Shown in pieces: positions 986 to 62,380 of a stretch of 64,000 nucleotides of DNA. Below the pieces are notes generated by a model. The model was given only the letters and a program-made list of their open reading frames with translations. It was not told the DNA's origin and ran no database searches. A program made the position numbers and the translations under genes. Numbering within the stretch: position 1 is the first letter of the stretch; each line of letters starts with the position of its first letter. Origin of the DNA: Thermodesulfobacteriota bacterium. GTDB taxonomy: Bacteria; Desulfobacterota; UBA8473. The DNA is taken from the NCBI GenBank assembly GCA_040757775.1, contig JBFLWQ010000001.1, positions 58,917-122,916 of the forward strand, written 5' to 3'.

Positions 986-1170
986 TATTTCCCCCCCTTA
1001 AGAATTGTGTAACCGTTCACGGTTCTCAGTTTACAGTTTGTGTTCTAGTAACCGTTAACTGCAAACCGTAAACTGTGAACTCTTACTCTTACTGAATAAC
1101 CATTCATTTTAACGATTAACATACAGGTACTGTTTTGTCAAGGTTTTTAGTAGAATCATAGACAAAACTG

Positions 1171-2655: not shown

Positions 2656-2947
2656 TTATATCCTCCTTTCAATAAATGTTCTGACAGGTAAGACACCTGT
2701 CCTACTGATTGATTTCTGTTTTTCATATTATGTTTCTGTTTTTCATAAAGCTTTTGAGATTACCATTTCAATCGTATTGTCAAAACCTCCCAAGAATCGG
2801 CACTGACTTCCTCTAATTTCCCCCTCCCCTCAATCCCCTCCCACCAAGGGAGGGGATATTTTAGTTGACTGGATAGTCTTTTTTTGTTATTCTTACAGCC
2901 CGTGTTAATTCATTGATAAATTATTTATATCCCTGAGGTAAAAAACA

Positions 2948-3844: not shown

Positions 3845-3878
3845 GCGCTTAAAACAGAAGATGCAGGGCAGTCATCCA

Positions 3879-4748: not shown

Positions 4749-4969
4749 GACCTGAAAAACTATTTAGTTGGCACTGAAAAATTCCCTTTTCCGCTCTCTG
4801 GTGCAGGTTTTTTGACCCATCTATGACTTGCTCCAGGCATTTTCAGGAACTCTCCGCCTACGGCGGATCAAATCCGCCAAAGGCGGACTTATCTTCCGCT
4901 TCGTCAAGATGGGTACCCCAAAAATCCTGCTCATATTCGCTCCAAAGGAAATTTTTCGATGAACTATCT

Positions 4970-6409: not shown

Positions 6410-6419
6410 AGATATGCCT

Positions 6420-7004
6420 CTAAAGGTCTATAAAGTTCCTGACAATCTTCTTCCCCTCACCGGTAAGAAACGATTCCGGATGAAACTGCACCCCTTCTAT
6501 TGTATAATCCCTGTGCCTTGTGCCCATTATAATGCTATCCTCTGTCCTTGCTGTAATCTCAAGACAGGGAGGGAATTCATCGTTTGACACAATAAGAGAA
6601 TGATACCTGGTGGCCTCAAAAGGATTTTCAACTCCCCTATAGACACCCTTTCCATCATGATAGATCATGGAGGTTTTGCCGTGCATAACTACATCTGCCC
6701 TTTTAACCTTACCTCCAAAAACTTCTCCTATGCATTGATGGCCCAGACAGACACCAAGTATACATTTCTTTTCTCCAAAATACCTGATGACGTCTTTCGA
6801 TATGCCAGCATCGTCCGGTGTACATGGACCAGGGGAGATGACTATCTTGTCCGGGTTTATATCTTCTATACCTTCCAGGGTTATCTTATCGTTCCTTATC
6901 ACCTTGAGTGTCACTCCAAGCTCACCGAAGTGCTGGACAAGGTTATAGGTAAAGGAATCGTAATTGTCTATCATCAGTATAAGCATCTTTTTCCCCTGGT
7001 GCAC
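6420..7004 (-). CDS. pabA: glutamine amidotransferase component II (PabA/TrpG type)
   Basis: 194 aa, MLILMIDNYDSFTYNLVQ, class-I GATase Cys in GVCLGHQ, and HPESF near the C-terminus. Confidence 0.7.
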   Translation of the reverse strand: MHQGKKMLILMIDNYDSFTYNLVQHFGELGVTLKVIRNDKITLEGIEDINPDKIVISPGPCTPDDAGISKDVIRYFGEKKCILGVCLGHQCIGEVFGGKVKRADVVMHGKTSMIYHDGKGVYRGVENPFEATRYHSLIVSNDEFPPCLEITARTEDSIIMGTRHRDYTIEGVQFHPESFLTGEGKKIVRNFIDL

Positions 7005-7125
7005 AACTATACCATTTCTTCTTAAGGTTTTCCAGTGGTTTTATAAAAAGAGCGCTAAAATACAAAAAAGGCTGGATTTTACCCAGTAATTGAGGTATAT
7101 CTATTTCTCGTAACTGGAGGATATT

Positions 7126-8493
7126 ATGATGCCCGTCAAACCAACCTATGAAGAGTTGGAGCAAAGAATAAAAGAATTAGAAACAGAAGCTATTAAACAT
7201 AAGAATATAGACAGGGCATTTAGGGAGAGTGAAGAACGGTTCCGAACCCTGTCGGAGGCTACTTTTGAAGGAATAGCAATCCATGAAGGGGGTGTACTTC
7301 TTACAGCAAATGAACAATACTTTCGGATGTTTGGGTATGATCCGCAAGAACTGATCGGGCAGCAGGTAATACCATTGACAGTGGCTCCTTTGTCCAGAGA
7401 ATTTATTGAAAAACAGATTAAATCTGGAGTCACAGGATCTCATGAGATTATGGGGCTTAAGAAAGACGGGACAGAGTTTCCGATAGAGACTAATGTGAAG
7501 TCTATGGAATATCAGGGACGTTTGGTCAGGGTAGTAGCAATCAGAAATATTTCTGAACGTAATCGAACCGATAAAGAACTGATAGAGGGCGAAGAGAGAT
7601 ATCGTACAATTTTAGATTCTAATCCTGATCCAGCGGTTATTTATGACATGGATGGCAAAGTAGTCTATCTTAATCCTGCATTTACAAGCGTGTTCGGGTG
7701 GACACAGGAGGAACGTCTGGGGAAAAAAATGGACAACTTTATCCCGGAGGAAGAATGGCCCATACTCCAAAAATTATTCGAAGAAGGCAATACCAATGCA
7801 TGTTTCCTGGATGTCGAGAGTAGAAGATATACCAAGGAAGGTAAAATTCTTGATGTCAGTATAAGCGGAGCATTTTTTAAGGATTCTAAAGGAATGCCGG
7901 CAGGAAGCTATGTTACTTTACGAAACATAACTGAAAATAAGAAGATGGAGAAGGCTTTGCGGGAAAGCGAGGAGAAATTTAGACGTCTTTCCTACATGGA
8001 TGATTTGACAGGTGTGGCAAATCGGCGTTATTTTGAAGAGATCTTTAATGTAGAGTGGGGACGTGGAGCACGTGACAGGTCTCCAATGTCACTGATCATG
8101 TGCGACATCGATTTTTTCAAGGCTTATAATGACAGACTGGGGCATCAAAGTGGTGATGATGCTCTGAAACAGGTAGCAGACTTATTGAGAAGTACGCTCC
8201 GCCGCCCCGGAGACATGGCGGCACGTTATGGCGGTGAGGAATTTGTGGTTGTGCTGCCGGATACGGATAAAAAGGGAGCTGCTCTTGTGGCAGAGCTATT
8301 GCGGGCTAATGTGGAGGTTTCAGGAATTGCACACCCTGACTCACCAATCTGTAAATCAGTAACCATCAGTATAGGGGTTGCCACTACAATCCCAGGTGGT
8401 AGGCATAAACCTGCTTCACTGATTTCAAAAGCAGACCATGCTATGTATCAGGCAAAAAAAGAAGGGCGTAACAGGGTTAAAATATCTGATTAA
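7126..8493 (+). CDS. PAS/PAC sensor diguanylate cyclase (GGDEF)
   Basis: 455 aa; two PAS-like segments followed by a GGDEF domain with active-site RYGGEEF. RBS ggagga lies upstream of the ATG pair at 7126/7129. Confidence 0.8.
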   Translation: MMPVKPTYEELEQRIKELETEAIKHKNIDRAFRESEERFRTLSEATFEGIAIHEGGVLLTANEQYFRMFGYDPQELIGQQVIPLTVAPLSREFIEKQIKSGVTGSHEIMGLKKDGTEFPIETNVKSMEYQGRLVRVVAIRNISERNRTDKELIEGEERYRTILDSNPDPAVIYDMDGKVVYLNPAFTSVFGWTQEERLGKKMDNFIPEEEWPILQKLFEEGNTNACFLDVESRRYTKEGKILDVSISGAFFKDSKGMPAGSYVTLRNITENKKMEKALRESEEKFRRLSYMDDLTGVANRRYFEEIFNVEWGRGARDRSPMSLIMCDIDFFKAYNDRLGHQSGDDALKQVADLLRSTLRRPGDMAARYGGEEFVVVLPDTDKKGAALVAELLRANVEVSGIAHPDSPICKSVTISIGVATTIPGGRHKPASLISKADHAMYQAKKEGRNRVKISD

Positions 8494-8577
8494 CGCGTAG
8501 TTTATAGAGGGCATCGCCACAGGAAACTTCAAACACAGGAACCCTTTGCCTATGGCAGGTCAACTTATATAAAATAT

Positions 8578-8606
8578 TTGACAAACCATATTGAAGGTGT
8601 TAATAA
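8578..8606 (+). promoter_or_regulatory. sigma70-like promoter for the tRNA (TTGACA-17 nt-TAATAA)
   Basis: TTGACA at 8578-8583, 17-nt spacer, TAATAA at 8601-8606, about 28 nt upstream of the tRNA 5' end. Confidence 0.4.
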
Positions 8607-8634: not shown

Positions 8635-8711
8635 GCCCCCGTAGCTCAGGTGGATAGAGCAAGGGATTCCTAATCCCTGTGCCGCGTGTTCGAGTCACGC
8701 CGGGGGCACCA
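8635..8711 (+). tRNA. tRNA-Arg (anticodon CCT), 77 nt with encoded CCA
   Basis: Cloverleaf read by hand: acceptor GCCCCCG/CGGGGGC, D-arm GCUC/GAGC, anticodon stem AGGGA/UCCCU with loop UUCCUAA (anticodon CCU), T-arm GCGUG-UUCGAGU-CACGC, discriminator A, then CCA. Confidence 0.85.
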
Positions 8712-10130: not shown

Positions 10131-10230
10131 GATGTAACTTATTGATATTGTTGATATTTTATACTTGACAACCTGATCCCCATTCTGTATAATATCCTCA
10201 TAAATCCATAAAATGTAAGGGAGGGATATA

Positions 10231-12796: not shown

Positions 12797-13479
12797 GGGT
12801 AACCATAAATCAGCCGTTGTTTTTTCAGAGATTGCACATGTTTAATCGTATTGCGGAATGCGATATCGCAGTGGTACTTCATTCCGCACAATTCGTGAGG
12901 AATGGAGACCAGCCTAAGCTGTTTCTGAAGTCTGCAAACCGTTTGCAGGAAATGAAGGTCCCTACCCTTCACGACGGAAGACAGTCAATAAAAGATACCA
13001 GGATTGATTACGGTCAGCAGTGGCAAAGAAAGATGATAAGGACAATAGAAATGAATTATGGAAAAACACCCTTCTTCTCTACCTACTTCGATGCGATTAA
13101 AAAGATTATATGTCAAACATACGCCTCTATAGGCGAATTAAACATTGCAACCCTCAGGTATGGCATGGCGGTCCTTGGCATCGACGTTAAGCTTGTACTA
13201 GATGATGAGCTTGATATTGATCCGTATGACAATCCGTCAGATTGGATGTTAAATATCTGCAAGGCACTCCACGCAACTGAATACCATTGTGGGAAGGTTG
13301 CTGCTGACAAGTACCTGGATTACGACAGGTTTCGTAAGGTAGGAATAAAGGTTTTTCCACAGGACTGGACAGCACGGGAGTACGAACAACCGTATAAGCC
13401 GTTTATTGGGAATCTGTCTGTAATTGACCTGCTGATGAATGTTGGCGGAGGAGATGCAGGAAAGGAGATGTTAAGGTGA
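12793..13479 (+). CDS. WbqC-like family protein (O-antigen-cluster associated)
   Basis: MRVTINQPLFFQRLHMFNRIAECDIAVVLHSAQF matches the WbqC-like N-terminus; ATGA overlap with the upstream gene. Confidence 0.55.
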   Translation: MRVTINQPLFFQRLHMFNRIAECDIAVVLHSAQFVRNGDQPKLFLKSANRLQEMKVPTLHDGRQSIKDTRIDYGQQWQRKMIRTIEMNYGKTPFFSTYFDAIKKIICQTYASIGELNIATLRYGMAVLGIDVKLVLDDELDIDPYDNPSDWMLNICKALHATEYHCGKVAADKYLDYDRFRKVGIKVFPQDWTAREYEQPYKPFIGNLSVIDLLMNVGGGDAGKEMLR

Positions 13480-14069: not shown

Positions 14070-14287
14070 TCAAAACAAGCTTACAAAAGGGAAAAACATT
14101 GTTTATACGTGTATTTTATGATGGAAAAGAAACTCGATATTGAAACAAATAGACAAAAACTACTGATTTTTTGTAATATTTAATAATATCAAGCACTTAA
14201 GGAACGCACACAATCGCCTACAATGATTTTTTTTATCGAACCTCTTATTATCCCATTCACTGGATACGACTTGAGGAGGTAAACTGA

Positions 14288-20998: not shown

Positions 20999-21088
20999 AA
21001 TTATGTTGTTGTGCTGGTATGCTTGTGTTGAGGTATACGTAAGGACTTGGGAGTCCTTTGTCACATATCTGTTATGGTCTGCTTGAAG

Positions 21089-21122
21089 CCAAAGGACTTG
21101 TTGTCCTTTGGCTTTTCTGTTT
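21089..21122 (+). terminator. rho-independent terminator-like hairpin
   Basis: CCAAAGGAC-ttgtt-GTCCTTTGG (perfect 9-bp stem) followed by CTTTTCTGTTT. The track's TTG start for the portal (21108) lies inside this hairpin. Confidence 0.45.
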
Positions 21123-21137
21123 GAAAGGTACTCAGGC

Positions 21138-24100
21138 ATGTGGTTGATAGATAGAATTACTGATCTTCTGACGAAGGCCAAGTACGATCCGTCCGGAGTT
21201 GATGGTCCTGGAACTACGAGAACTGGTAATGAGCAGAACGGATGGTATTATAATCTGATAAAGCTCGAGGAGACACGAAAGGCACGATACAAAGATTATG
21301 ACACGATGGATGATGAGTTCCCGGAAATATCCTGTGTTACAGGAGACACAATAGTTCACTGTTTAGATGGAGATTTTACGATTAAGGAATTGACAGAGAA
21401 CAAGAAAGATGAAATGTTCTTGGTTTACAGTTGCGATGGGAATAGAATAGTTTTTGATGAAGCGTATGCTCCACGACTCTCAGGTAGAAAAGTAAAAGTT
21501 ATTCGCGTAAGGTACAGAAGCAACAACCGATGGACCCATGAACTACGAGTTACTGGCGACCATAAATTTATGATGAGGGACGGTAGCATGAAAATGGCTG
21601 GAAAGTTAAGGTCAGGAGATAGCCTAATGCCGTTCAACGCTCAGTATGTAAATGATAGGCGGGTCATTAAAGATTTGGATGGTAGGAAGGTCTATGCGTC
21701 CCATCTGGTATTTGAGCAATACGCCAATAGAGCAGTTGATCTTGGCAAAGTGATTCACCACATTGATGGGAACCGGAGAAACGACAATCCACTAAATTTG
21801 CATGAATTATCGCTTGAAGAACATTGCCGTAAGCATAGCATGGGGAATCAGCATACATTGGGAATGATATGGAACGATGATACTGAACGAGTGGAAAAGC
21901 ATAGAAAGCGGATGCTTGGGAATAAGCATAAAAAGGGGAAGGCCAATAGTATAGAAACACGAATGAAGATGAGGAAAGCTCATGCTGAAAGACGACTGCT
22001 AGGGCTAAAACGAAACAGAGAATATGGAAAGCCATGGAACAAGATACAAATTACGCCGGAAGATTTGGTAAATGCTGTTGAAAGAACGAATGATTATAGA
22101 GAAGCAAGCGAACTGTTAGGAATTTCAGTTCCTGTGTTTTTCAGGCGTGTGAAGGATTTTGGTTTAAGGGGAGCTGTTGATTATAATCATGTGGTAGTAG
22201 GTATCGAAGATGGAGGGTTTGAGGATGTTTATGATTTGACGACACGGCGTACTCATAAGTTTGCTGCGAATCACCTAATTATATCGAATTCGAGTATCGA
22301 TATATATTCAGACAATGCGACACAGTCGGTTGATGGAACGCATGAGTCGTTTTGGATAGAATCCGAAGACCAGAAAGTAAAGGATGTTCTGACCAGGATT
22401 AACGAGGAGACTGGACTGCAAGATTCGATTTGGTCTATTGGGCGAAATCTGGTTAAGTATGGAGATGATTTTGAGGAAATAGTATTAAACTCAAGTATGT
22501 TCGTAGTAGATATAAAAGGATTGCCCTGTGAGCAGATGTACAGGAATGAGGATGAATACGGCAGGTTGCTAGAGGATGGTGCGTTCACGCAGAGAGACGT
22601 AAGCACAAACAAGGAGCTTGCAGAGTTTAAGAGCTGGCAGATCGTCCATTTCAGAAATGTGGTGAAGAGAGGGACGAAATACGGGAGGAGTTTACTGTAT
22701 CCTGCAAGAAAGGTATTCAAACAGTTACAGATGATGGAAGACGGTATGGTGATTGCGAGGCTGACCAGGAGCAACATGAGGTACAAGTGGAAAATCGATG
22801 TCGGCAATATGTCTGCAAATGAGGCACGTACATTCCTGAGAGATGTCAAGATGGAGCTCAGAAAGAAGCGCGTTATTGACCCTGCTACGGGCAAGTTTAA
22901 ACTGACCGATAATCCATTAAAAGATGAGGAAGATTTTTTTGTGGCTGTAAGGGATGGATCTCCGGCTGACGTTGATGCCATACAAGGTTCTGCAACGCTT
23001 GGTACTATTGGTGATGTAGAGTATTTTCAGAATAAGCTGTTTTCGATGCTGAAGGTACCGAAGGCGTATCTTGGATTGGAGAGAGATGTGAATGCTAAAT
23101 GTTTGGCTGGCGATACCCCGATATGTCTTGCAAATGGGAAAGATATGCCGATTCGTGAATTAGTAAAGCTTTATAGTAATGGGCAAAGGTTTTACGTGTA
23201 TTCATGCCGTAGAGATGGTGAGATAGTAATAGCAGAAGCACATTCCCCAAGGATAACAAGAAGAAATGCCGAAATGGTAAAAGTGACGCTCGATAGTGGG
23301 GTGAGCTTCAGGTGTACACCTGACCATCCGATAATGTTGCGCTCAGGTTCTTTTTGTCAGGCGAAAGATATTAAGAATGGCACAAGCATTATGCCTTTGT
23401 ATAGAAAGATCTCCGAGAAACCTGAGAATAGTATTAGCGGATACGAGTTACATAGAAATCCACGAACGGGCCAATGGAGATATACGCATAGGCTTGTTGG
23501 AAGACATCTTCCCAGGCCGATCGGTGAAAAGCGTTGGGTCATGCACCATGTTGATTTTGATAAGAGAAATAACTCGCCAGACAACCTTGTTCTCATGACG
23601 TGGGACGATCATGTAAAGCTACACATGGCTTTTGTAGCGTTGTTGCATACCGAAGAAGTTAAGAAGCGTAGCAGAGAGGGCGTTTTGAAATCTGCAAAAT
23701 TCAAAAAAAGACTGTTGAGCATGAATAGCAGCCTTTGGAAGAGAGCGAAGTCTAGCAAGACATTGAGACGATTGTATGCTGAAGGCGTTATGAATGTAAA
23801 GGGTGTCCTAAATCCAAGATACAGAAAGGATGTCACGGTTGAAAGTATAGCGAATGCAGCTCGAGAAGCAAAATGTTCATCTGCAAAAGAGATACAAGAA
23901 AAAACTGGAATTAATTATTCGTTGTTAAGAAGACGACTTGACAAGTTGGGACTAAGTTATCAAGAGTTTGCAGATAAAGTTTTGGAAGCGGGGTATAGAA
24001 AAACTGGATGGCATCGCCCTGACTTAAGTCTTGAAAAAATAGGTGAAGCCATCGCTTCCTTCGCAACAGTAAAAGAGGCAGCAGAAAAATTAGGTGTTAA

Positions 24101-24752
24101 CCGGCCTGACCTTTACCAGATATGTAAAAGAAGAGGGACGACTGTTCAGGAATTGCGGGCATCCAACCATAAAGTAGTGAGCGTTGAACCCGACGGCGTG
24201 GATGCCGAAACGTACGACTTAACTGTAGATAACTATCATACGTTTGCAATAGGGTGTGGTATCTTTGTTCATAATAGCACCCTGACCGTACAGGATGTAC
24301 AATTCGCAAGGACTGTCCGTAGGTATCAGAAGATATTAACGAATCAGATAAGATCGATATACAATCTAGGGCTAATCTTGCAATCATTGGATCTTGCGAA
24401 GTCTCCGTATTATGTTTTCTTTCCACCTATAAATACTGTTGATGAGCTTGCTAGGTGGCAAACCGAAAAGGTAAAGGCTGAGATAGCAAAGATTTACGGG
24501 ATTGATATTAACTGCGTGTCTGAGGAATTTATTCTGTCCTATTATCTTGGACTGACTGACAATGAGATTAAGGATGTTTCAGGACAGACGAAACCGGTAC
24601 GGCAGGGCAAGGAGCAGCAGGTAGTAGAAACGATCACGACTTCCAACATCGAACCGCATGAGCTACTAGAGCTTGGAAATCTACTGGAAGCTCTGAGAGA
24701 CCTTGTTGAAATTGAACTGGAGAAGAAGGAACAAGAACGATGGGAGCATTAG
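21138..24752 (+). CDS. portal protein interrupted by two HNH-type inteins
   Basis: First ATG after the hairpin. Removing the two inteins leaves an extein of about 500 aa, typical for a portal, in the position after the terminase. Confidence 0.55.
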   Translation: MWLIDRITDLLTKAKYDPSGVDGPGTTRTGNEQNGWYYNLIKLEETRKARYKDYDTMDDEFPEISCVTGDTIVHCLDGDFTIKELTENKKDEMFLVYSCDGNRIVFDEAYAPRLSGRKVKVIRVRYRSNNRWTHELRVTGDHKFMMRDGSMKMAGKLRSGDSLMPFNAQYVNDRRVIKDLDGRKVYASHLVFEQYANRAVDLGKVIHHIDGNRRNDNPLNLHELSLEEHCRKHSMGNQHTLGMIWNDDTERVEKHRKRMLGNKHKKGKANSIETRMKMRKAHAERRLLGLKRNREYGKPWNKIQITPEDLVNAVERTNDYREASELLGISVPVFFRRVKDFGLRGAVDYNHVVVGIEDGGFEDVYDLTTRRTHKFAANHLIISNSSIDIYSDNATQSVDGTHESFWIESEDQKVKDVLTRINEETGLQDSIWSIGRNLVKYGDDFEEIVLNSSMFVVDIKGLPCEQMYRNEDEYGRLLEDGAFTQRDVSTNKELAEFKSWQIVHFRNVVKRGTKYGRSLLYPARKVFKQLQMMEDGMVIARLTRSNMRYKWKIDVGNMSANEARTFLRDVKMELRKKRVIDPATGKFKLTDNPLKDEEDFFVAVRDGSPADVDAIQGSATLGTIGDVEYFQNKLFSMLKVPKAYLGLERDVNAKCLAGDTPICLANGKDMPIRELVKLYSNGQRFYVYSCRRDGEIVIAEAHSPRITRRNAEMVKVTLDSGVSFRCTPDHPIMLRSGSFCQAKDIKNGTSIMPLYRKISEKPENSISGYELHRNPRTGQWRYTHRLVGRHLPRPIGEKRWVMHHVDFDKRNNSPDNLVLMTWDDHVKLHMAFVALLHTEEVKKRSREGVLKSAKFKKRLLSMNSSLWKRAKSSKTLRRLYAEGVMNVKGVLNPRYRKDVTVESIANAAREAKCSSAKEIQEKTGINYSLLRRRLDKLGLSYQEFADKVLEAGYRKTGWHRPDLSLEKIGEAIASFATVKEAAEKLGVNRPDLYQICKRRGTTVQELRASNHKVVSVEPDGVDAETYDLTVDNYHTFAIGCGIFVHNSTLTVQDVQFARTVRRYQKILTNQIRSIYNLGLILQSLDLAKSPYYVFFPPINTVDELARWQTEKVKAEIAKIYGIDINCVSEEFILSYYLGLTDNEIKDVSGQTKPVRQGKEQQVVETITTSNIEPHELLELGNLLEALRDLVEIELEKKEQERWEH
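21333..22289 (+). mobile_element. intein 1 (319 aa) with HNH homing-endonuclease domain
   Basis: Begins ...PEIS|CVTGDTIVHCLDG (block A); block B TGDHKF; HNH core HHIDGNRRNDNPLNLHEL...EEHCRKH; ends VYDLT...THKFAANHLIISN|S (blocks F/G, Ser+1). Confidence 0.5.
23100..24275 (+). mobile_element. intein 2 (392 aa) with HNH homing-endonuclease domain
   Basis: Begins ...NAK|CLAGDTPICLANG; HNH core HHVDFDKRNNSPDNLVLMTWDDHVKLH; ends TYDLTVDNYHTFAIGCGIFVHN|S (canonical HN + Ser+1). Confidence 0.6.
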
Positions 24753-26426: not shown

Positions 26427-26505
26427 CAGGCGCATATTGGTCTGGTAATATCTTCCACTTAAAATTAATACTGCAAGCGGTTTGCAGGCGGGTAATAGTA
26501 ATGAC

Positions 26506-26556
26506 TAGCCCGGTTGATTTGCTATCTGTGTATAGCAATTAACCGGGCTTTTTTAT
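26506..26556 (+). terminator. rho-independent terminator
   Basis: TAGCCCGGTT...AACCGGGCT stem followed by TTTTTTATT. Confidence 0.5.
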
Positions 26557-46901: not shown

Positions 46902-47119
46902 CTAAGAAAACTAAGAAATTTATCGATAAAAAAAGGATTACAACGCTTTTTATCGCTTTACGTAGTATCAACAGTAAAGCATCTGTAAAAATATCGGGGC
47001 TTTTCTGAAAACATCAATAACATTAACTACTTACATGATGTCTAAAAACGCCTACAATGAATTTTCTTTTTTAAACCCATATAAACCTACCTTTGTTTGA
47101 CATCCATTGATTTTGTTCC

Positions 47120-47240
47120 AGATCAATACCATCAACTGTTTACCGATTCAACAATATCAATACTTCACCGTCCATAGTCACCGAATCAATAAAATCAAGC
47201 CTTTACCGATTCAATAATATCAAGTATTTACCGTCAAGAA
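47120..47240 (+). repeat. iteron-like direct repeat array (TCAAYAAYATCAA core, >=4 copies)
   Basis: TTTACCGATTCAACAATATCAA at 47139-47160 and TTTACCGATTCAATAATATCAA at 47202-47223 (21/22 identical), with degenerate copies at ~47121, ~47178 and another ~46987. Confidence 0.45.
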
Positions 47241-47277
47241 AAACGGCATAAGTACTTAAAATCATTGCATTTTTTTC

Positions 47278-47306
47278 TTGACACCAGTTTATCTGTATGC
47301 TAGAAT
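47278..47306 (+). promoter_or_regulatory. sigma70-like promoter P1 (TTGACA-17-TAGAAT) with conserved leader
   Basis: TTGACA at 47278-47283, 17-nt spacer, TAGAAT at 47301-47306; downstream leader GAAATCATAAAACATAAATCACAAAGG, then RBS + ATG 47346. Confidence 0.55.
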
Positions 47307-47345
47307 GAAATCATAAAACATAAATCACAAAGGGGGAAAAAGGAG

Positions 47346-47555
47346 ATGCCAAGCCAGGAAGCAATTGAGGAGATTGAGAACATAACCGAGTATCTCATAA
47401 GGTTCGCAACCAGGCCCCCAAAGGGCTCCCTTACACCTTACCTAATCGGTACTAAGCTCCTAAATGAGGGATTGAACAACCCTTCAAATCTCGCAATAGT
47501 AATGGCTGATCTTAAGAAAGCAGGAGTAAAGATTCAATCTGCCAGAAGGTATTAA
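47346..47555 (+). CDS. hypothetical early protein
   Basis: RBS aaaaaggag + ATG; 69 aa. Confidence 0.35.
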   Translation: MPSQEAIEEIENITEYLIRFATRPPKGSLTPYLIGTKLLNEGLNNPSNLAIVMADLKKAGVKIQSARRY

Positions 47556-47556
47556 G

Positions 47557-47733
47557 ATGATGGAAATAGAAAGAAGTATAGTCAAGAAAAAATTGATGGA
47601 CGCTGAAGGATACTTCCTTGATAGGAAAATGATAGCGTTCGATGGAACTGGAGACCTTCATATTCAGTGGCTACTGGCAATAGTGAAATTAATAGTGGCA
47701 GGAAAGCTAACCCTAAAAGGAGAATTAGAATGA
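47557..47733 (+). CDS. hypothetical small protein (not in ORF track)
   Basis: 58 aa; ATGA coupling to the next gene. Confidence 0.25.
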   Translation: MMEIERSIVKKKLMDAEGYFLDRKMIAFDGTGDLHIQWLLAIVKLIVAGKLTLKGELE

Positions 47734-47951
47734 GGTCAATTGAAGAAATTGTTGAAAGTGTTCTTATGGAAGAAAAGAAATTGTTTCCACAGGAGTCTGA
47801 CACAGAGAGGCTAAAAGCAACAAAGCATCTCTGCAAAAGATGCGAATCCCCTGTTATCAATGGACGCATTATCTGTCCAAGGCTCGAAAGGGAGATAGCA
47901 CTTGAAGGATGCAACCGCATTTATGGAGGTAACTGTGCACCAGTTTTATAA
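47730..47951 (+). CDS. zinc-ribbon small protein
   Basis: ATG 47730 with RBS aaaaggag (the track's GTG at 47667 rejected); CKRCESP...CPRLE. Confidence 0.3.
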   Translation: MRSIEEIVESVLMEEKKLFPQESDTERLKATKHLCKRCESPVINGRIICPRLEREIALEGCNRIYGGNCAPVL

Positions 47952-48420
47952 CGAAATTGAAGGATGGTTAACTGATTCAAAATTGAAGGTAAATGGCTGC
48001 CCGGACTTCCCGAGAAAGATCGCTCTTGATTGTTTGGTGTTAGGAGGTCCTGAAAAATATGGAGTTGCCAAGAAAATGTGGCGAAGTGCTTATGAGAACG
48101 TGAGACATCTTCTCACCGATGAAGCCTTTGCTGATTTTGCTTCCGTTGGATTAACAGTTTGGATAGCGGAGCAAGGACTTGATGGAACGCTGACCGAATT
48201 CATAATGGACTATGTTGCTTACCTGGTTGAGAAAGACCTAGAGGTTGAGATCAAGGGAAATACGACATCGAAGAAATCAATGGGGGTTAGAATTAGAGGC
48301 AAAACCCCTGAAATTGCAAATTTAGTATATCAGAAAATGATGGATGGTGCTTTGAAACTGGTTGGGAGCATCGATGAGGTATTTGCTAATCTTCTCAATA
48401 CCATAATTCTAGCAAGATAA
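47902..48420 (+). CDS. hypothetical protein
   Basis: 172 aa, no motif recognised. Confidence 0.3.
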   Translation: MKDATAFMEVTVHQFYNEIEGWLTDSKLKVNGCPDFPRKIALDCLVLGGPEKYGVAKKMWRSAYENVRHLLTDEAFADFASVGLTVWIAEQGLDGTLTEFIMDYVAYLVEKDLEVEIKGNTTSKKSMGVRIRGKTPEIANLVYQKMMDGALKLVGSIDEVFANLLNTIILAR

Positions 48421-48430
48421 GGAGAAATGT

Positions 48431-48811
48431 ATGAAAAAAGGTACGTACTATATAGGGGATCCAGGTTACGTCTTCGATGAGTCTTGGGAAGATTTTTTAG
48501 AAGAAACGGAATACTGCGAAGATGGGATATATGAATATACAGGGGAAATGGTATGTGTTGGCAAAACGGCTTATGGAGATGGTGCTTACTATGATATGCA
48601 GAGAAGGAGGTATGCGGTTGACTCTGGTTCGTTGGGTATTTTACCAGTTTCTTTGCTAGAGATGGATAATATAGAGACCGTTGAAAGTATCAAAAGCAAA
48701 TGCTTTTCCCATATCGTAGAAATGAAAGAAGATTTTGATTGCAACGTAAAAAATGGGGTTTTTAGGTTTGGAAATATTGTAATTGATACAAAAGATGATG
48801 GAGAAGAATAA
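48431..48811 (+). CDS. hypothetical protein
   Basis: 126 aa; YIGDPGYVF...GDGAYYD...VDSGSLG motifs, family unknown. Confidence 0.3.
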   Translation: MKKGTYYIGDPGYVFDESWEDFLEETEYCEDGIYEYTGEMVCVGKTAYGDGAYYDMQRRRYAVDSGSLGILPVSLLEMDNIETVESIKSKCFSHIVEMKEDFDCNVKNGVFRFGNIVIDTKDDGEE

Positions 48812-48821
48812 GGAGGAAGTT

Positions 48822-49049
48822 ATGGCTTACGATCCGGACTTAGATAAGGTGGTGAAGGAGTTTACGCATGAGAATGGTCTCTGTGTATCGATAAACCGCT
48901 ACAATGGTGGAGACGAGAAGGTACAGATAGGACCAAGGGTTATTGGAAAGGGGACTATCGCCGAAAAAAAAGTGAAGGCTGGAAGGCTGTCTAAGGAAGA
49001 GTTTGAATGGGTTTGCTCATTGAGAGAGAAGATAGAGAAGTGTTTGTAG
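48822..49049 (+). CDS. hypothetical small protein
   Basis: ATG 48822 with RBS aaggagg (the track's TTG at 48783 rejected). Confidence 0.3.
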   Translation: MAYDPDLDKVVKEFTHENGLCVSINRYNGGDEKVQIGPRVIGKGTIAEKKVKAGRLSKEEFEWVCSLREKIEKCL

Positions 49050-49092
49050 TCATTGCAAACTGATTGCAGGATGATAGATGAAAGGAGACAAA

Positions 49093-50505
49093 ATGGCTAC
49101 AGGTGATAATTGGCTTGAGGTTTCAAGAAGTGGCCTCAGAGAGTTACAGGAAGGTAAGCCGAAGCACTTTATTGTCCGGGAACTTGTGCAGAACGCTTGG
49201 GATGAAAAGGTAACGTACTGCAAGCTGACCACAAGTTGGAATAAAGGTGTTGCTAAGATTGAGGTTGAAGATGATAGCCCGGAAGGATTCAGAGATTTAT
49301 CGGATGCCTTTACGTTGTTTTCCCATACATACAAGAGGTCTGATCCTGAGAAGCGTGGTAGGTTTAATCTTGGCGAGAAGGAAGTTCTAGCGATGTGTGA
49401 TTATGCCTTGATACGGACTACGAAAGGGACCCTAGTTTTTGATAATAACGGGAGGCATAGGTCTGGTCGAAAGCGGATAGCTGGTACGGTTATAATGGTA
49501 CATGTCAAGATGAAGAAGTTCGAGTACGATGATATGCTGAAGGCACTACGAAAGTACATGGTGCCTGATGGAATCAGGTTTAGTGTCAACGGAGAAGAGG
49601 TCTTGTATCGTCGACCGTTCAAGGTATTTGAGGCTACGCTTCCTACAGAATACGTAGTGAATGGTGTGTTTACAAGGACAAGAAGAAAGACTCGAATCCA
49701 TGTTATGCATCGTAACCCTGAAAGCGGTGCAATGTTGTATGAATTAGGAATCCCGGTCTGTGAGATTGAGTGTCTATACGACATTGATGTTCAGCAGAAG
49801 GTTCCGCTGTCAACCGACAGGAGTATGGTTCCCGAAAGCTATTTGTCAAACGTCTATGCGGAAGTGCTCAATGCGGTATACGAGGTTGTGCCTGAAGAGT
49901 GTGCATCTGAGCAATGGATTAGAGAGGCGATTGGGAATAGCAGAATAGGACGTGAGGCACTCAAGGATGTTATTGAAAAGAGATTTGGAGACAAGGTTGT
50001 AGTTGCCAACCAGTGGGATAGAACGTCTATTGATAGAGCTGTTTCGGAAGGATATAGAGTAATTAGGGGGCAGGATCTCTCAAAGGCTGAATGGACGAAT
50101 GTACATCAGTATGAACTGATTAAGTCATCGAGCGTTCTGTTCGGTACGAGGTTTGTAGGATTCACGGAAGTGGACCCCGATGATAACATGAGGAAGGTAG
50201 CCGAGCTTGCCCGAAAGATTGCGAAAGGATATCTTGGGGTGGATATTCTGGTTAAGTTTGCTCGATGGGAAGGGAATACAGGAGCAGAGTATGGCAATAA
50301 GGAGTTGTCGTTTAATGTTGCATGTCTTGGCGTGGGTTTTTTCAATCCACCACTGTCCGAAAAGGTAATAGATCTGATTGTTCACGAAATATGTCACGAG
50401 CGTGGTTTGCACACGCAGGCAAGTTATCATAATGCACTGACTGGGGTTTGTGGAATGCTGGTTATGATTGCTTTGAAGGAACCTGAATTCTTTGAAGTTG
50501 ATTAA
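49093..50505 (+). CDS. GHKL/HATPase-like ATP-binding domain protein with C-terminal HExxH motif
   Basis: ATG 49093 with RBS aaaggagac. N-terminus FIVRELVQNAWDE...IEVEDDSPEGF...GRFNLGEKEV matches a Bergerat-fold N-box/G1/G2 layout of the sacsin/HATPase_c_3 type; C-terminus LIVHEICHERGLH. Confidence 0.45.
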   Translation: MATGDNWLEVSRSGLRELQEGKPKHFIVRELVQNAWDEKVTYCKLTTSWNKGVAKIEVEDDSPEGFRDLSDAFTLFSHTYKRSDPEKRGRFNLGEKEVLAMCDYALIRTTKGTLVFDNNGRHRSGRKRIAGTVIMVHVKMKKFEYDDMLKALRKYMVPDGIRFSVNGEEVLYRRPFKVFEATLPTEYVVNGVFTRTRRKTRIHVMHRNPESGAMLYELGIPVCEIECLYDIDVQQKVPLSTDRSMVPESYLSNVYAEVLNAVYEVVPEECASEQWIREAIGNSRIGREALKDVIEKRFGDKVVVANQWDRTSIDRAVSEGYRVIRGQDLSKAEWTNVHQYELIKSSSVLFGTRFVGFTEVDPDDNMRKVAELARKIAKGYLGVDILVKFARWEGNTGAEYGNKELSFNVACLGVGFFNPPLSEKVIDLIVHEICHERGLHTQASYHNALTGVCGMLVMIALKEPEFFEVD

Positions 50506-50529
50506 ACAGATAGTAAAGGAGGTGAAAAG

Positions 50530-50778
50530 ATGTTTTGTAAAAAATCGGATCACCAGTACGCTGAGAAGGAATGCCCGCAGTGTGGACAGGAGTTTTGCTA
50601 CGCCTGTTGTAACGGGACAAACGTAGACCAGGAAGGAAATTATGACCCTGATTACATGAACTGTCCCTATTGTGGAGCAGACTACTACGGAGCAGATTAC
50701 TACACTCCTGTCCGTGATATAGCAGGGCAAATTGTAAACGGATTGCAAAAAAGCTCGGTACCCCACCCCAAACGTTAA
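50530..50778 (+). CDS. zinc-ribbon protein
   Basis: CPQCGQEFCYACC...CPYCGADYYGADYY; RBS aaggaggtg. Confidence 0.35.
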   Translation: MFCKKSDHQYAEKECPQCGQEFCYACCNGTNVDQEGNYDPDYMNCPYCGADYYGADYYTPVRDIAGQIVNGLQKSSVPHPKR

Positions 50779-50795
50779 AGGAAGGAGAATGAGAA

Positions 50796-51005
50796 GTGGA
50801 AATAACAAAAGAAGCAATGGAACAATATGAGAAAGTTAGGGCAAGCGGGATTTGTAATATGTTTGATATGAATTGTGTCGCTACGGTATCCAAGAAGCTG
50901 AAATTCAAAGAATTATACAAGATAGTTCAAAGCAGGAAAGAATATGGAAATTTATTGGAGAATTTCAGCGTTCTAATGAAAAAATATGGAATAAAACAGA
51001 GATAA
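50796..51005 (+). CDS. hypothetical small protein
   Basis: GTG start after RBS aaggaaggagaa. Confidence 0.3.
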   Translation: MEITKEAMEQYEKVRASGICNMFDMNCVATVSKKLKFKELYKIVQSRKEYGNLLENFSVLMKKYGIKQR

Positions 51006-51078
51006 GAGGTAAGCCCATGGTAAACCAAACATAGGGTGCAAAAATTTGCTAAGTATTTGATATTACGTCATTTTTTAT

Positions 51079-51107
51079 TTGACAACTAAATTTTTTTCTG
51101 CTAGAAT
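51079..51107 (+). promoter_or_regulatory. sigma70-like promoter P2 (TTGACA-17-TAGAAT), near-identical module to P1
   Basis: TTGACA at 51079-51084, 17-nt spacer, TAGAAT at 51102-51107; leader GAATCATAAACCACAAATCATAAGG parallels the P1 leader. Confidence 0.55.
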
Positions 51108-51154
51108 GAATCATAAACCACAAATCATAAGGCAATGGAAGGAAGGTGAGCGAA

Positions 51155-51568
51155 ATGGCATTGGTTAAGCAAACTGGAACATTGGAAGAAGTGGTTGATA
51201 ATGCAAGGATTGATATTGAAGAACTGCGTGATGAAATGGAAAGTTGGCGGGACAATATATCCGGGACTGGACTGGAATCTACCGAGAAGTATGAAAGAGT
51301 CGACGATACTGCTGATACACTTGATAGAATTGTTGATGCCCTGAATGATATTACATGGATGGATATTAGGGAAAGTGAGGTTAAGTTTCAAGTTGATCAA
51401 AGGAAAAAGGCTCCACGATGGCTTAGACTACAGAATTCGGTATCTGCTCTTAATGCGGCATCTGAGGTTATTGACAATATTATTGAAAACCTTAACGATA
51501 TTAAAGAGAGTCTTGATACTGCAGTCTCCGAGGCAGATGGTGTTGATTTCCCCACAATGTACGGTTAG
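51155..51568 (+). CDS. hypothetical acidic protein
   Basis: ATG 51155 with RBS aggtga; 137 aa. Confidence 0.3.
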   Translation: MALVKQTGTLEEVVDNARIDIEELRDEMESWRDNISGTGLESTEKYERVDDTADTLDRIVDALNDITWMDIRESEVKFQVDQRKKAPRWLRLQNSVSALNAASEVIDNIIENLNDIKESLDTAVSEADGVDFPTMYG

Positions 51569-53020: not shown

Positions 53021-55138
53021 ATGGGAATAGAAAAGATAAGAGAGGAAATGAGGAAAGACTTTGTTGAACGGTCTGAGCTTGTTGATGGATGCCTTGTTGC
53101 TGTGTTGGCAAAACAGCACTTATTGATGATAGGTCCTCCAGGAACGGCTAAGAGTTTGCTCTGCAATGATCTCTGTCTCAGGGTGGATGGTGCCGTGTAT
53201 TTCCAGTGGCTACTCACGAAGTTCAGTACACCGGAAGAGATATTTGGGCCGATTTCGCTAAGCCACCTGGAGAAGGATGAGTACAAAAGGATAACTGCAG
53301 GGAAGTTACCGGAAGCTCATATTGGGTTCTTGGACGAAGCTCTTGACTTGGATACTCCACTAGCAACGCAGGAAGGATGGAGCACGGTAGGACAGGTTAA
53401 AATAGGAGATACGATCTTCGGAGCAAATGGAAGTCTAGTCAATGTAATAGGCATGACGGAGATAGCAGCAAATAGAGACTGTTATAAAGTGACTTTACAG
53501 AATGGAGAGTCTATTGTAGCTGATGCTGGGCATAACTGGCTATGTCGAAGAGGTAGAGGTCATCATAGGGTTCCTTTCAAGGTTAGAACGACTTTGGAAA
53601 TGGCAAATGAACTTAAGAAGAACGGATTCTTGCAGCTTCCACTTCCTAAGCCTGTCCAGCTACCGGAGCAAGACTTACCAATAGACCCGTATGTTTTAGG
53701 GCTATGGTTGGGTAATGGTAATTCGTGGAACGGTGAAATTTTAATGCGGAGAGAGTGGGCCGATGCTGCTCTAGCAGAGATACGGAAGTCACTGCCAAAG
53801 GCAAGAATAGTTGAAAGGGCAAATTGTTCCAAACAGTTGAGAACTATTTCCGTGGGAGATACTGGCTTACGATCCAAATTGGGAGATGCAGGATTGCTGC
53901 TTTCCAGAAGTGTTTACAGGGGGAGTGGCAAGAGCGTCCCGTTGGTATATTTACGTAGCTCGCTTGGTCAGCGCTTGCGATTAGTACAGGGGTTAATGGA
54001 TACGGATGGATATATGCAAAAGGGAGGAACATGTACGTTTAGCAATACGAATGAGAACATCGTTGACGGCATAGTTGAACTGCTTAATAGCTTAGGAATC
54101 AGGTGTTCAAAAAGGCTAACCAACGATAAAAGGGTAGGAGCTAAAGGGCGGCATAAGAGATGTTGGAAGGTAAATTTTAGGGCAACGCCGGGTATGCCTC
54201 CGTTTCTGGCTAGGAAAGTTTATATTCCCCCTTTGAAACAGCGACGCCATATCAGAGTTGTGTCTGTCAAAAAGGTAAAGTCACGTCCGGTAAGATGTAT
54301 TGCGGTTGACTCAAAGGATCATCTGTTTTTGGCTGGCAGAGTGATGGTGGTTACGCATAACTGTTTCAAGGCAAACTCGGCCATCCTGAATAGCTTACTG
54401 AGCATCGTAAACGAGCGTGTTTACCACAACGACTCGAAGCCAATGCCTGTTCCACTGTTCTCGTTGTTTGGTGCTAGCAACGAGTTACCCCATGGAGAGG
54501 AGCTTGGAGCACTGTACGATAGGTTTCTGCTTCGGTATGAGGTTGGATACATAGGAGAGGATTCAGGCTTCAAGGAGATGCTGCTGTTGGAAGAAAGACC
54601 TACGAAGGAGATGATGAGCCTTCAGGAGTTGGAAAAACTACAGGCCGAGGTTGTGAAAGTTGAAATCCATGATGATTTGATTGAAATGGTTATCAAGCTA
54701 CGTGGTGAATTGAAGAAGGAAGGTATCATCGTATCCGATCGTAGGTGGAAGCATAGCCTGACATGTCTTCAGGCGTTTGCACTGTTGAATGGGCGTAGCA
54801 AGGTTGTTGAAGAGGACCTTGAAATTCTACATCACATTCTGTGGTCGTACCCTGAACAGAAAAAGGTTGTAACCAGGATTGTTAACTCGATTGCAAATCC
54901 GTTGAACCAGAGAGCAATGGAAATATTGGACCAGGCTACCGAAATCTACAACGATGCAGTGGTTAATGGCACAACAGAGCTTGGGATCGAGGCAAATGCA
55001 AAACTGAAGAAACTAAGAGCTGAGATCGATAGTCTGATTAAGAACGCAACTGGTGGTATGACAAAGGCTGAAGAAGTACGAGAGAAGGTGAAGGAGTTCA
55101 ACAAGGTCATAGTCCAGAAGTGCCTCGGTCTCGAATAG
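53021..55138 (+). CDS. MoxR-type AAA+ ATPase interrupted by an intein
   Basis: Walker A MIGPPGTAKSLL; Walker B HIGFLDE, then a 341-aa insertion, then CFKANSAILNSLLSIVNER (MoxR sensor region). The extein is about 364 aa. Confidence 0.6.
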   Translation: MGIEKIREEMRKDFVERSELVDGCLVAVLAKQHLLMIGPPGTAKSLLCNDLCLRVDGAVYFQWLLTKFSTPEEIFGPISLSHLEKDEYKRITAGKLPEAHIGFLDEALDLDTPLATQEGWSTVGQVKIGDTIFGANGSLVNVIGMTEIAANRDCYKVTLQNGESIVADAGHNWLCRRGRGHHRVPFKVRTTLEMANELKKNGFLQLPLPKPVQLPEQDLPIDPYVLGLWLGNGNSWNGEILMRREWADAALAEIRKSLPKARIVERANCSKQLRTISVGDTGLRSKLGDAGLLLSRSVYRGSGKSVPLVYLRSSLGQRLRLVQGLMDTDGYMQKGGTCTFSNTNENIVDGIVELLNSLGIRCSKRLTNDKRVGAKGRHKRCWKVNFRATPGMPPFLARKVYIPPLKQRRHIRVVSVKKVKSRPVRCIAVDSKDHLFLAGRVMVVTHNCFKANSAILNSLLSIVNERVYHNDSKPMPVPLFSLFGASNELPHGEELGALYDRFLLRYEVGYIGEDSGFKEMLLLEERPTKEMMSLQELEKLQAEVVKVEIHDDLIEMVIKLRGELKKEGIIVSDRRWKHSLTCLQAFALLNGRSKVVEEDLEILHHILWSYPEQKKVVTRIVNSIANPLNQRAMEILDQATEIYNDAVVNGTTELGIEANAKLKKLRAEIDSLIKNATGGMTKAEEVREKVKEFNKVIVQKCLGLE
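53339..54361 (+). mobile_element. intein (341 aa) with LAGLIDADG homing-endonuclease motifs, Ala at position 1
   Basis: Starts FLDE|ALDLDTPLAT (block-A-like with Ala1); LAGLIDADG-like YVLGLWLGNGN and RLVQGLMDTDGYM; ends VMVVTHN|C (HN + Cys+1), inserted at Walker B. Confidence 0.55.
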
Positions 55139-57893: not shown

Positions 57894-57908
57894 TGCAAAC
57901 GGTTTGCA
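57894..57908 (+). promoter_or_regulatory. perfect palindrome TGCAAAC-G-GTTTGCA upstream of the clamp gene (candidate operator)
   Basis: 7-bp inverted arms around a single nt; followed by TAGAATGAAAATAAG (57931-57945), a -10/leader resembling P1/P2. Confidence 0.35.
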
Positions 57909-57966
57909 GCTAAAATAATTTGACATTGGATAGAATGAAAATAAGTTAAGGAAAACGAGGTGATAG

Positions 57967-61663: not shown

Positions 61664-61843
61664 ATGAAGCGCAAGTTAAAGGTGATAGAAAGGTACTACG
61701 ATAACGAATTTCGAGGTGGGGGTCACTCTGAAATCAGGCTAAAGGGTAAATGGCTTTTGAAGTTTGGGTTCAAGCCAGGAGCTAAGGTGGAAGTGGTGCC
61801 TGAGGATGGTAGGTTGGTTATTCAGTTGATAAAAGATGGTTGA
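61664..61843 (+). CDS. SymE-like / AbrB-fold small protein (not in ORF track)
   Basis: 59 aa; IRLKGKWLLKFGFKPGAKVEVVPEDGRLVIQLI resembles the SymE-family core (LxGxWLxxxGFxxGxxVxV...GxLxI); RBS ggggtggtgga. Confidence 0.35.
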   Translation: MKRKLKVIERYYDNEFRGGGHSEIRLKGKWLLKFGFKPGAKVEVVPEDGRLVIQLIKDG

Positions 61844-61912
61844 TGTTTCCGATAGATTCCACTTGACATAAAGTATAAAACATATTACCTTCTGTTGCAG
61901 GAGGTAATTAGA

Positions 61913-62380
61913 ATGCGGAGGATGCGAATGTATGGTAATCCAAAGGTACTAGCGGAGAGGTTAAATGCGGTTTATGGTAATATGGAGTCTCCTGTCTATC
62001 TAAGAATTAAAGTGAAAGGGTTTTCTGATGTTCTTGTTTTGAAGGCTCGCTCTAATAGTTCCTGGATGGTCTCTAACGAAAGTATGGCTCCTGATATGTT
62101 CAAGGATTATGATAATTCTGAATTTTCTGGATATGATGAGAATGAGGTAATATTACAGCTTGAGGATCGAATTAGCCGAATATGGTTGGATGACAAGACA
62201 GTGTTTAGTACCTGGGCTGACTTTATTGACTGGCTTGATGATCTTGATGTCCGTGAACCAGAGTTCAGGACCACGGTTCACCTGCCCATGTCTGTTACTG
62301 TTGCACTGAGAGCATTGAAGGATAAGACCGGTAAGGATATGAGGCATATAATCTGTGATGCTGTAAAAGCGTACTTGTAG
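61913..62380 (+). CDS. hypothetical protein
   Basis: ATG 61913 with RBS gcaggaggt (the track's TTG at 61895 rejected). Confidence 0.35.
   Translation: MRRMRMYGNPKVLAERLNAVYGNMESPVYLRIKVKGFSDVLVLKARSNSSWMVSNESMAPDMFKDYDNSEFSGYDENEVILQLEDRISRIWLDDKTVFSTWADFIDWLDDLDVREPEFRTTVHLPMSVTVALRALKDKTGKDMRHIICDAVKAYL

Follow-up and report, generated by a model that had tools for sequence, protein, structure and literature searches.

Two near-consensus promoters, which we call P1 and P2, each head a block of plus-strand, non-structural genes in a tailed prophage that is integrated beside a tRNA-Arg gene in a metagenome-assembled genome (MAG) of Thermodesulfobacteriota. All positions given here refer to a 64,000-nucleotide stretch of the 266-kb contig JBFLWQ010000001.1 (hereafter the window). 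P1 and P2 resemble each other on both sides of the promoter core but not between its two hexamers, and the part of this similarity that straddles the predicted transcription starts is built of three tandem 7-nt repeats. We tentatively propose that this heptad block may be a DNA operator through which one repeat-reading repressor would control both promoters.

P1 and P2 share a promoter cassette

As the initial annotation of this DNA had described for two promoter-plus-leader modules, TTGACA, a 17-nt spacer and TAGAAT are present at 47278 and 51079 (Table 1). Across both strands of the 64 kb, the arrangement TTGACA-N16-18-TAGAAT occurs at P1 and P2 only, compared to a mean of 0.03 in shuffled sequence. 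The hexamers of P1 and P2 score 11 of 12 and are accompanied by a TGn extension of the -10 element, while those of a third promoter, P0 (10165), score 12 of 12; no other site in the window reaches 11-12 of 12 with a 17-nt spacer, and P1 and P2 are the top sigma70-type promoter matches of their region. All three lie in short intergenic gaps right before a plus-strand gene with a good ribosome-binding site, and the genes behind them are mostly orphans. Transcription is predicted to start at A47313, A51113 and A10200, 6-7 nt past the respective -10 elements. Judged by their sequence, P1, P2 and P0 would thus be near-consensus, presumably active promoters for the housekeeping (sigma70-type) RNA polymerase of the host.

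To guard against the bias that A/T-rich DNA introduces, segments of P1 and P2 were aligned singly and compared with composition-controlled shuffles. Significant similarity was found in the 29 nt upstream (p=0.004) and in the 28 nt past the -10 element (p=0.0002), but not in the 17-nt spacer (p=0.9), where 8 of 17 positions are identical and three of these are the TGC of the extended -10. The upstream part, on which the initial annotation was silent, begins at 47249 and 51050, 29 nt before the -35 elements (repeat family D2, TAAGTAyTT...CATTTTTT), and the conserved blocks keep one register from -64 to the -10 element without any insertion or deletion. Because the similarity ends at the ribosome-binding sites and the proteins encoded downstream are unrelated, P1 and P2 share a regulatory cassette of about 100 bp and not a duplicated gene segment. 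Conservation of the flanks but not of the spacer suggests a constraint beyond the two hexamers, and its block-wise nature points to the flanks as sites of control. This pattern fits the shared cis-regulatory input proposed earlier for the two modules, although one form then considered for that input, RNA structure, is at odds with leaders that do not fold.

A perfect 11-bp inverted repeat with an A/T-rich stem and a 28-nt loop (GTCAAGAAAAA at 47233-47243 and TTTTTCTTGAC at 47272-47282) was found at P1 only, its right arm covering the -35 element. We also considered a divergent minus-strand promoter arising from the mirror-image TTGAC in the left arm (47233-47243) and ruled it out by reading, as there is no usable -10.

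A triple heptad straddles the predicted starts

The leader pattern ATCATAAAnCAnAAATCAyAA is found only at 47310 and 51110 when either strand is searched at up to three mismatches, with 0.12 occurrences expected. The leader consensus given in the initial annotation is correct at both sites, save that P1 has one additional A before the GG. At both promoters this region resolves into three unspaced heptads with the consensus AAYCAYA. Shifted against itself by 7 nt, the P1 block matches at 11 of 14 positions (p=0.002) and the P2 block at 10 of 14 (p=0.006), and no other shift between 3 and 10 is significant. In a post hoc comparison with the heptad WATCACW, 18 of 21 positions agree in P1 and likewise in P2, a score not reached by any other triple in the window; the sole perfect WATCACW heptad is AATCACA at 47323-47329. 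Allowing up to one mismatch, heptad pairs occur elsewhere in the window only at 61867, before an ORF resembling ribbon-helix-helix (RHH) proteins, and this occurrence is not above chance.

Given the assumed starts, the 5' untranslated regions (5' UTRs) are 31-42 nt long. Their minimum free energies, 0 kcal/mol for P1 and -2 kcal/mol for P2, are no better than those of shuffles (z +0.3 and +0.6), a consensus fold of the P1, P2 and P0 leaders contains 0 pairs, and a search against Rfam returned no leader match and the tRNA alone in the whole window. An RNA without a fold removes the option, raised in the initial annotation, that the leaders act through RNA structure. Nor does either strand of the window hold a complement of the leader at up to three mismatches, a search that covered pairing along the leader within the window and leaves room for short seed pairing or for a partner elsewhere.

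A possible shared operator and its alternatives

We consider it possible, at somewhat less than an even chance, that the heptad block of P1 and P2 is a shared DNA operator bound by one repeat-reading repressor, with the early timing of the two operons, the operator function and the operator protein all putative. Unmodified host polymerase would fire the cassette promoters unaided, which would make them natural immediate-early promoters. Near-consensus promoters of an integrated prophage call for repression unless the genes that they drive are expressed in the lysogen, and silencing would be needed in the lysogen or after the early phase. A model for such silencing is the omega protein of pSM19035, an RHH protein that binds unspaced arrays of 5'-WATCACW-3', for which two contiguous heptads are enough, and that coordinates three promoters (PMC4627068). 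An omega-like RHH repressor would bind across both start sites and switch both operons together, since occupancy of -4 to +17 would prevent the two promoters simultaneously from forming an open complex or from releasing the polymerase into promoter escape. The likeness to omega comprises unspaced 7-bp direct repeats in the promoter regions of several operons, a tentative, post hoc match to WATCACW at 18 of 21 positions and the presence in P1 and P2 of the minimal unit of two contiguous heptads. We regard it as a lead to the mode of action, drawn by analogy, and not as family membership. No omega-family gene was detected in the window, and both the host phylum and the type of element differ.

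Several points weigh against this operator. The omega arrays comprise 6-10 heptads at or upstream of the -35, compared to three at -4 to +17 here, and the resemblance was noticed after the sequence had been seen. Being homologous, P1 and P2 amount to a single evolutionary observation, the 7-nt periodicity is missing from P0, and no near DNA match was found in 50,697 phage records. The mosaic conservation could stem from recombination within cassettes, as in the promoter-early stem-loop (PeSL) cassettes discussed below (PMC2839356), and the cassette genes could be accessory genes expressed in the lysogen, their early character being deduced. Lastly, the window contains no clear repressor gene, the one hint of an RHH protein being sub-threshold: the C-terminus of an orphan ORF at 61913-62380 (155 aa) matches positions 1-37 of the 39-position RHH_1 profile at E=0.11-0.15, below cut-off, and a single-sequence structure model of this ORF is unusable (pLDDT 41.7). 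Likewise, apart from a weak SAP-like match, no DNA-binding family was recognised in the genes that open the P1 and P0 blocks.

Around the 155-aa ORF, we observed a preceding gene for a 59-aa SymE/AbrB-fold protein (61664-61843, E=7e-10) and, directly before the ORF, TTGACA (61863) with the heptad-like series TGACATA/AAGTATA/AAACATA, which is not above chance.

P1 and P2 could instead be homologous cassettes that spread by duplication or recombination without a dedicated regulator, their similarity being kept by the contributions that A/T tracts, start context and initial transcribed sequence make to promoter strength. We judge this unlikely overall, though several observations favour it. Transcription starts ordinarily prefer a pyrimidine-purine step, which TC-A at -2 to +1 fits, and both the unrelated downstream genes and the end of similarity at the ribosome-binding site are what such spread would leave. 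Initial transcribed sequences contribute functionally to promoters (PMC12464699, PMC5961368), and they can make a difference of up to 25-fold in output from a strong phage promoter (PMC12464699). Moreover, there is precedent in the PeSL cassettes of the T4-type phages RB49 and phi1, of which there are about 50 per genome (PMC2839356; PMC4122927): these are about 100 bp long, carry a strong sigma70-like promoter with AT-rich DNA upstream, are conserved to the Shine-Dalgarno, are accompanied by a stable stem-loop that ends upstream transcription, lie mostly before ORFans in hyperplastic regions and recombine into chimeras (PMC2839356). The present prophage has T4-like portal and prohead protease genes, and its cassette resembles PeSLs in being repeated, in its length of about 100 bp and in having a promoter that is strong and sigma70-like, conservation towards the Shine-Dalgarno, unrelated flanking coding sequences and an A/T-rich tract before the -35 (CATTTTTTTC in P1, CATTTTTTAT in P2 and ATATTTTATAC in P0). 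This likeness, which is not expected to extend to the DNA sequence, has limits. Three copies are seen here in 55 kb of a prophage that continues past the window, compared to about 50 per PeSL genome, the start-site block is built of heptads, and the element is an integrated Thermodesulfobacteriota prophage and not a lytic coliphage. Neither P1, P2 nor P0 has a G/C-rich terminator stem-loop nearby; the PeSL terminator thus has no counterpart in P2 or P0, and P1 offers just the AT-rich 11-bp inverted repeat. The distribution of similarity also argues against spread alone, since a spacer at background level next to 21 near-identical bp requires either selection on those bp or a recombination joint exactly there. 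Promoter strength, for its part, leaves the 7-nt periodicity unexplained. According to one large-scale study of promoter escape in E. coli, stable G/C-rich initial hybrids favour escape and A/U-rich ones do not (PMC5961368); as the initial transcribed sequences here are A/U-rich and hence not of the fast-escaping kind, optimisation of promoter strength is no obvious cause of their conservation.

A role of the block at the RNA level is, in our estimation, doubtful. Under this explanation, an unstructured, G-poor and A/C/U-rich 5' UTR, comprising roughly the first 20 nt of the two mRNAs, could aid ribosome loading, or could bind a common RNA-binding protein or small RNA (sRNA), so that the two operons would be coordinated post-transcriptionally. 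Nearly the whole block lies inside the predicted transcript and adjoins the ribosome-binding site, the leader is single-stranded, as is usual for protein or sRNA targets and translational enhancers, and CAY/AAA motifs set 7 nt apart would be a fitting target for an RNA-binding protein that forms oligomers. The A-rich start of the transcript is kept in P0, and a 33%-identical homologue of the first gene of the P2 block, on a Logan contig, has directly before it TTGACA-16-TATATT followed by an A/C-rich leader, aataacaacacaacaagg (positions 660-740 of locus L036). However, a generic enhancer needs a composition and not 19 of 21 identical positions in a fixed 7-nt phase, the conserved TC precedes the predicted start, the complement that sRNA pairing would call for is absent from the window within the limits given above, and no candidate RNA-binding protein was identified.

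Independent promoters nearing the sigma70 consensus in A/T-rich intergenic DNA are a highly improbable source of the similarity: convergence alone would give hexamer identity, and A-rich leaders do inflate chance matches, but the shuffles that preserve composition still place both the downstream and the upstream block far from background, the 21-nt leader pattern recurs nowhere else and the conserved blocks stand in one register. A structured leader common to both operons (a riboswitch, an attenuator or a nut/put-like antitermination hairpin) is less credible still, for although the layout recalls the near-identical nut sites in the two early-operon leaders of lambda, the folding results refute any structure within the 33-42-nt leaders, no Rfam family besides tRNA occurs in the window and the stretches from the promoters to their genes contain no terminator.

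Comparison with other phages and search for relatives

The operators OL and OR of lambda are palindromic and overlap the core promoter, its early promoters are divergent, and its nut sites need the boxB hairpin. P1 and P2 recall lambda in that two early units have near-identical cis elements near their promoters, which one factor might govern; they differ in their direct repeats, unconserved spacer, same-direction promoters and unstructured RNA. A leader hairpin of the kind seen in lambda nut (boxB) or HK022 put (put stem-loops) is likewise absent here, with 0 and -2 kcal/mol and 0 pairs. With T7 A1-A3, T5 N25/N26 and the T4 early promoters, P1 and P2 have in common co-directional, near-consensus promoters for host polymerase, A/T-rich upstream tracts and a conserved +1 context, but those phages are virulent and require no repression in a lysogen, and to our knowledge a heptad periodicity has not been described in their early promoters.

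Repeated strong promoter cassettes and shared cis elements over early units are well-known phage practice; only for the heptads that span the start site were we unable to find a match among described systems. A wider version of the operator proposal, which we put forward as speculation and consider unlikely, is that the heptads are the operator of an undescribed phage protein that reads tandem 7-bp (or 7-nt) repeats, either as an omega-like global RHH repressor on the initially transcribed DNA or as an oligomeric RNA-binding protein on the CAY/AAA repeats of the nascent leader. Such a protein would switch all immediate-early operons together, alongside the TA[CG]AATGA sites described below, a class that lacks a -35 and is spread across the phage, two of its members having leader terminators.

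Searches by DNA and through neighbouring proteins found no relative of this prophage region. Neither genome_contigs nor viral_contigs contains the 24-base leader pattern, and the 11 metagenome matches of a looser 19-base pattern all have unrelated flanks. For the first gene of the P2 block we found only itself and the 33% homologue mentioned above, which lies on a 4.6-kb contig without synteny and among unrelated neighbours. With DUF6908 as the anchor, 35 viral loci were recovered; their identity does not exceed 48%, they show no synteny, and none contains TTGACA-N16-18-TAGAATG. No syntenic locus was obtained with a tail protein or a 126-aa protein as the anchor.

Very little has been established about how Thermodesulfobacteriota phages regulate transcription, and close relatives of this prophage were not detected. 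The analysis mainly refines the earlier picture and reveals no new mechanism; it supplies a promoter catalogue of three consensus host-type promoters with a common start-site element, seven TA[CG]AATGA sites, a 24-nt box, a recurring palindrome and two leader terminators. A compact cassette with a strong promoter might also serve for expression in such hosts.

P0 is a probable third cassette

The initial annotation had placed a degenerate third copy of the module before dnaN. The TAGAAT in question (57931) is present, as is the perfect palindrome before it (57894-57908), but the site is not a copy of the cassette. We rejected it as a decayed member because it shares just TAGAATGAA with P1 and P2 and has neither the leader motif nor the upstream block; its TTGACA lies only 5 nt before TAGAAT, and there is no -35 at 16-18 nt.

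By sequence, P0 is the probable third member, though more diverged. Its TATAAT is followed by TCATAAAtcCATAAA; the sequence up to the ATG reads atcc and then TCATAAATCCATAAAATGTAAGGGAGGG. The pattern TCATAAA-N1-2-CAYAAA occurs exactly three times in the window, each time 3-4 nt past the -10 of P1, P2 or P0, with 0.02 occurrences expected; the gap in this pattern was widened after P0 had been seen, so the test is not fully independent. Compared with P2, the upstream and downstream blocks of P0 alike give p of about 0.02, and the comparison with P1 is not significant.

Table 1. Positions of the promoter cassettes and other features in the window.
Feature	Position	Strand	Details
P1 -35 TTGACA	47278-47283	+	T-tract CATTTTTTTC directly upstream
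P1 extended -10 TGcTAGAAT	47298-47306	+	TAGAAT at 47301-47306; spacer 17 nt
P1 triple heptad AATCATA/AAACATA/AATCACA	47309-47329	+	About -4 to +17, straddles predicted start
P1 ribosome-binding region GGGGG/GGAG and first ORF	47331-47555	+	69 aa; ATG 47346; no family match
P1 upstream block	47246-47269	-	-67 to -44; weak remnant of 24-nt box; 70% identity to 51050-51110; box position weight matrix score 1.1
P2 -35 TTGACA	51079-51084	+	CATTTTTTAT directly upstream
P2 extended -10 TGcTAGAAT	51099-51107	+	Spacer 17 nt
P2 triple heptad AATCATA/AACCACA/AATCATA	51109-51129	+	AATCATAA twice, 14 nt apart
P2 ribosome-binding site GGAAGGTGA and first ORF	51141-51568	+	137 aa; ATG 51155; identical to AB1401_00620
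P2 upstream block	51047-51070	-	Inverted partial 24-nt box; includes TATCAAATACTTA
P0, diverged cassette (probable)	10131-10230	+	Fills gap between HNH endonuclease ORF and 296-aa gene
P0 parts	TTGACA 10165-10170; TATAAT 10188-10193; ATG 10231	+	Spacer 17 nt; ribosome-binding site GGGAGGG; tract ATATTTTATAC before -35
P0 start-site motif TCATAAATCCATAAA	10198-10212	+	
dnaN site	57894-57936	+	Palindrome TGCAAACGGTTTGCA 57894-57908; TTGACA 57920-57925; TAGAAT 57931-57936
Tandem array of four 24-25-nt boxes	47122-47233	+	Ends 45 nt before P1 -35; TRF period 25, 86% matches
Box plus CGCCTACAATGAATTTT, promoter-like module	47013-47065	+	250 nt upstream of P1; duplicate at 14179-14231
tRNA-Arg(CCT)	8635-8711		Sole Rfam match at or above gathering threshold in window (8635-8708)

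A 24-nt box recurs upstream of the cassettes

The upstream block of P1 and P2 (about -67 to -38) is related in sequence to a 24-nt box with the consensus ATCAAnAAnATCAAsyAyTTACCG, and in P1 it holds a perfect 10-bp palindrome, TAAGTACTTA (47249-47258). A full inverted copy of the box is found in P0 (10132-10155, minus strand), of which about two-thirds is kept in P2 and less in P1, in the same register as in P0. Besides the tandem array before P1, there are single copies at 47013-47036 and 14179-14202, each of which forms part of a duplicated module of about 53 bp in which the box is joined to CGCCTACAATGAwTTTT (16 of 17 positions identical) and overlaps the -35 position. The copy at 14179-14231 precedes the block running from a methyltransferase to the structural genes, so that the 14179 and 47013 copies flank the 33-kb structural region. 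The consensus of IHF, WATCAANNNNTTR, has nine matches in the window, five of them within box copies; it matches P0 (10135-10147) and P2 (51050-51062) but not P1, and these are consensus matches only. The box could be a candidate operator array, an iteron array or a set of IHF sites, and it may bind IHF or a phage protein.

A second promoter-like motif, a palindrome and leader terminators

The motif TA[CG]AATGA, a pattern picked after inspection, occurs seven times in the 4.1 kb of prophage intergenic DNA, in every case on the plus strand (14219, 20652, 26412, 47053, 47301, 51102 and 57931) and 0 times on the minus strand; 0.31 occurrences are expected, and the maximum in 5000 shuffles was 4. 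The sites lie 36-150 nt upstream of a plus-strand gene, apart from 47053, which instead lies upstream of P1. A consensus -35 accompanies the motif at P1 and P2 only, leaving five of the seven without one, and these, including the dnaN site, suggest a second promoter class that may be factor-dependent.

At the dnaN site, the centre of the perfect 15-bp palindrome TGCAAACGGTTTGCA lies 30 nt before the -10. By analogy with the class II activator geometry of CRP/FNR-type promoters, it is placed as an activator site might be. The 15-bp palindrome (TGCAAACnGTTTGCA) recurs with up to one mismatch at 12933-12947, 26472-26486, 49054-49068 and 57894-57908 (and at 50733-50747), often followed by GG, and a rough calculation gives about 0.01 such sites expected. 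A sigma54 reading of the palindrome TGCAAAC..GTTTGCA was ruled out by reading, as there is no GG at -24.

Strong plus-strand hairpins of intrinsic terminators, with U-runs, were observed in two leaders, at 21085-21115 (z=-6.4) and at 26507-26555 (hairpin 26507-26549, z=-3.5). Both lie downstream of TA[CG]AATGA sites without a -35, right before the portal gene and the head-gene block, respectively, and they resemble the PR'-tR' arrangement of lambda, in which a late operon is controlled by antitermination.

The prophage and its genes

Bases 1-8500 of the window hold ordinary host genes for a PFK-response regulator fusion, UbiA, a class IV aminotransferase, chorismate-binding and GATase enzymes and a GGDEF protein. 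The tRNA-Arg gene at the junction of host and prophage is the likely integration site; its own promoter, TTGACA-17-TAATAA (8578-8606), a single example read by eye, suggests that the host polymerase may recognise the consensus seen in P1, P2 and P0. Beyond about 8.8 kb, and as far as the window reaches, almost all genes are on the plus strand, among them those for a T4-like portal with inteins, a prohead protease, a major head protein and a tape measure protein. As a second copy of the tRNA 3' end is absent from the window, the right end of the prophage must lie past 64000, and the 55 kb seen here continue beyond the window. Three proteins of the window are 100% identical to NCBI AB1401_00605, AB1401_00620 and AB1401_00690, and the locus tags from AB1401_00605 to AB1401_00690 fall inside it.

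The structural module ends at 46901, and P1 comes after it. There follow small orphan genes, a widespread GHKL-type ATPase and a DUF5049 protein and, further on, DUF6908, an intein-containing MoxR ATPase, a VWA protein, DUF6744, a DnaN-like clamp, RadC and a DUF4942 methyltransferase. PADLOC did not recognise any known defence system among the genes of the P1 and P2 blocks. Convincing terminators were detected neither in the interval from the structural module to P1 nor in that from the P1 block to P2 (the upstream folds are weak), and P2 therefore looks like an internal booster promoter of a long co-directional unit, a layout comparable to the tandem early promoters of T7 or T5.

Two genes are interrupted by inteins: the T4-like portal gene (21108-24752), which contains Intein_splicing and HNH_3 domains, and the gene for the MoxR-type AAA ATPase (53021-55138), which is split by a LAGLIDADG homing-endonuclease domain. 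The 475-aa GHKL/sacsin-like ATPase (49078-50505) has 1682 homologues, the best 120 of which are 48-57% identical. Both homologues for which genomic context was retrieved sit in unrelated mobile elements, with DUF932, integrase, primase or Mu-like portal neighbours, and this ATPase is a widespread, uncharacterised gene of mobile elements.

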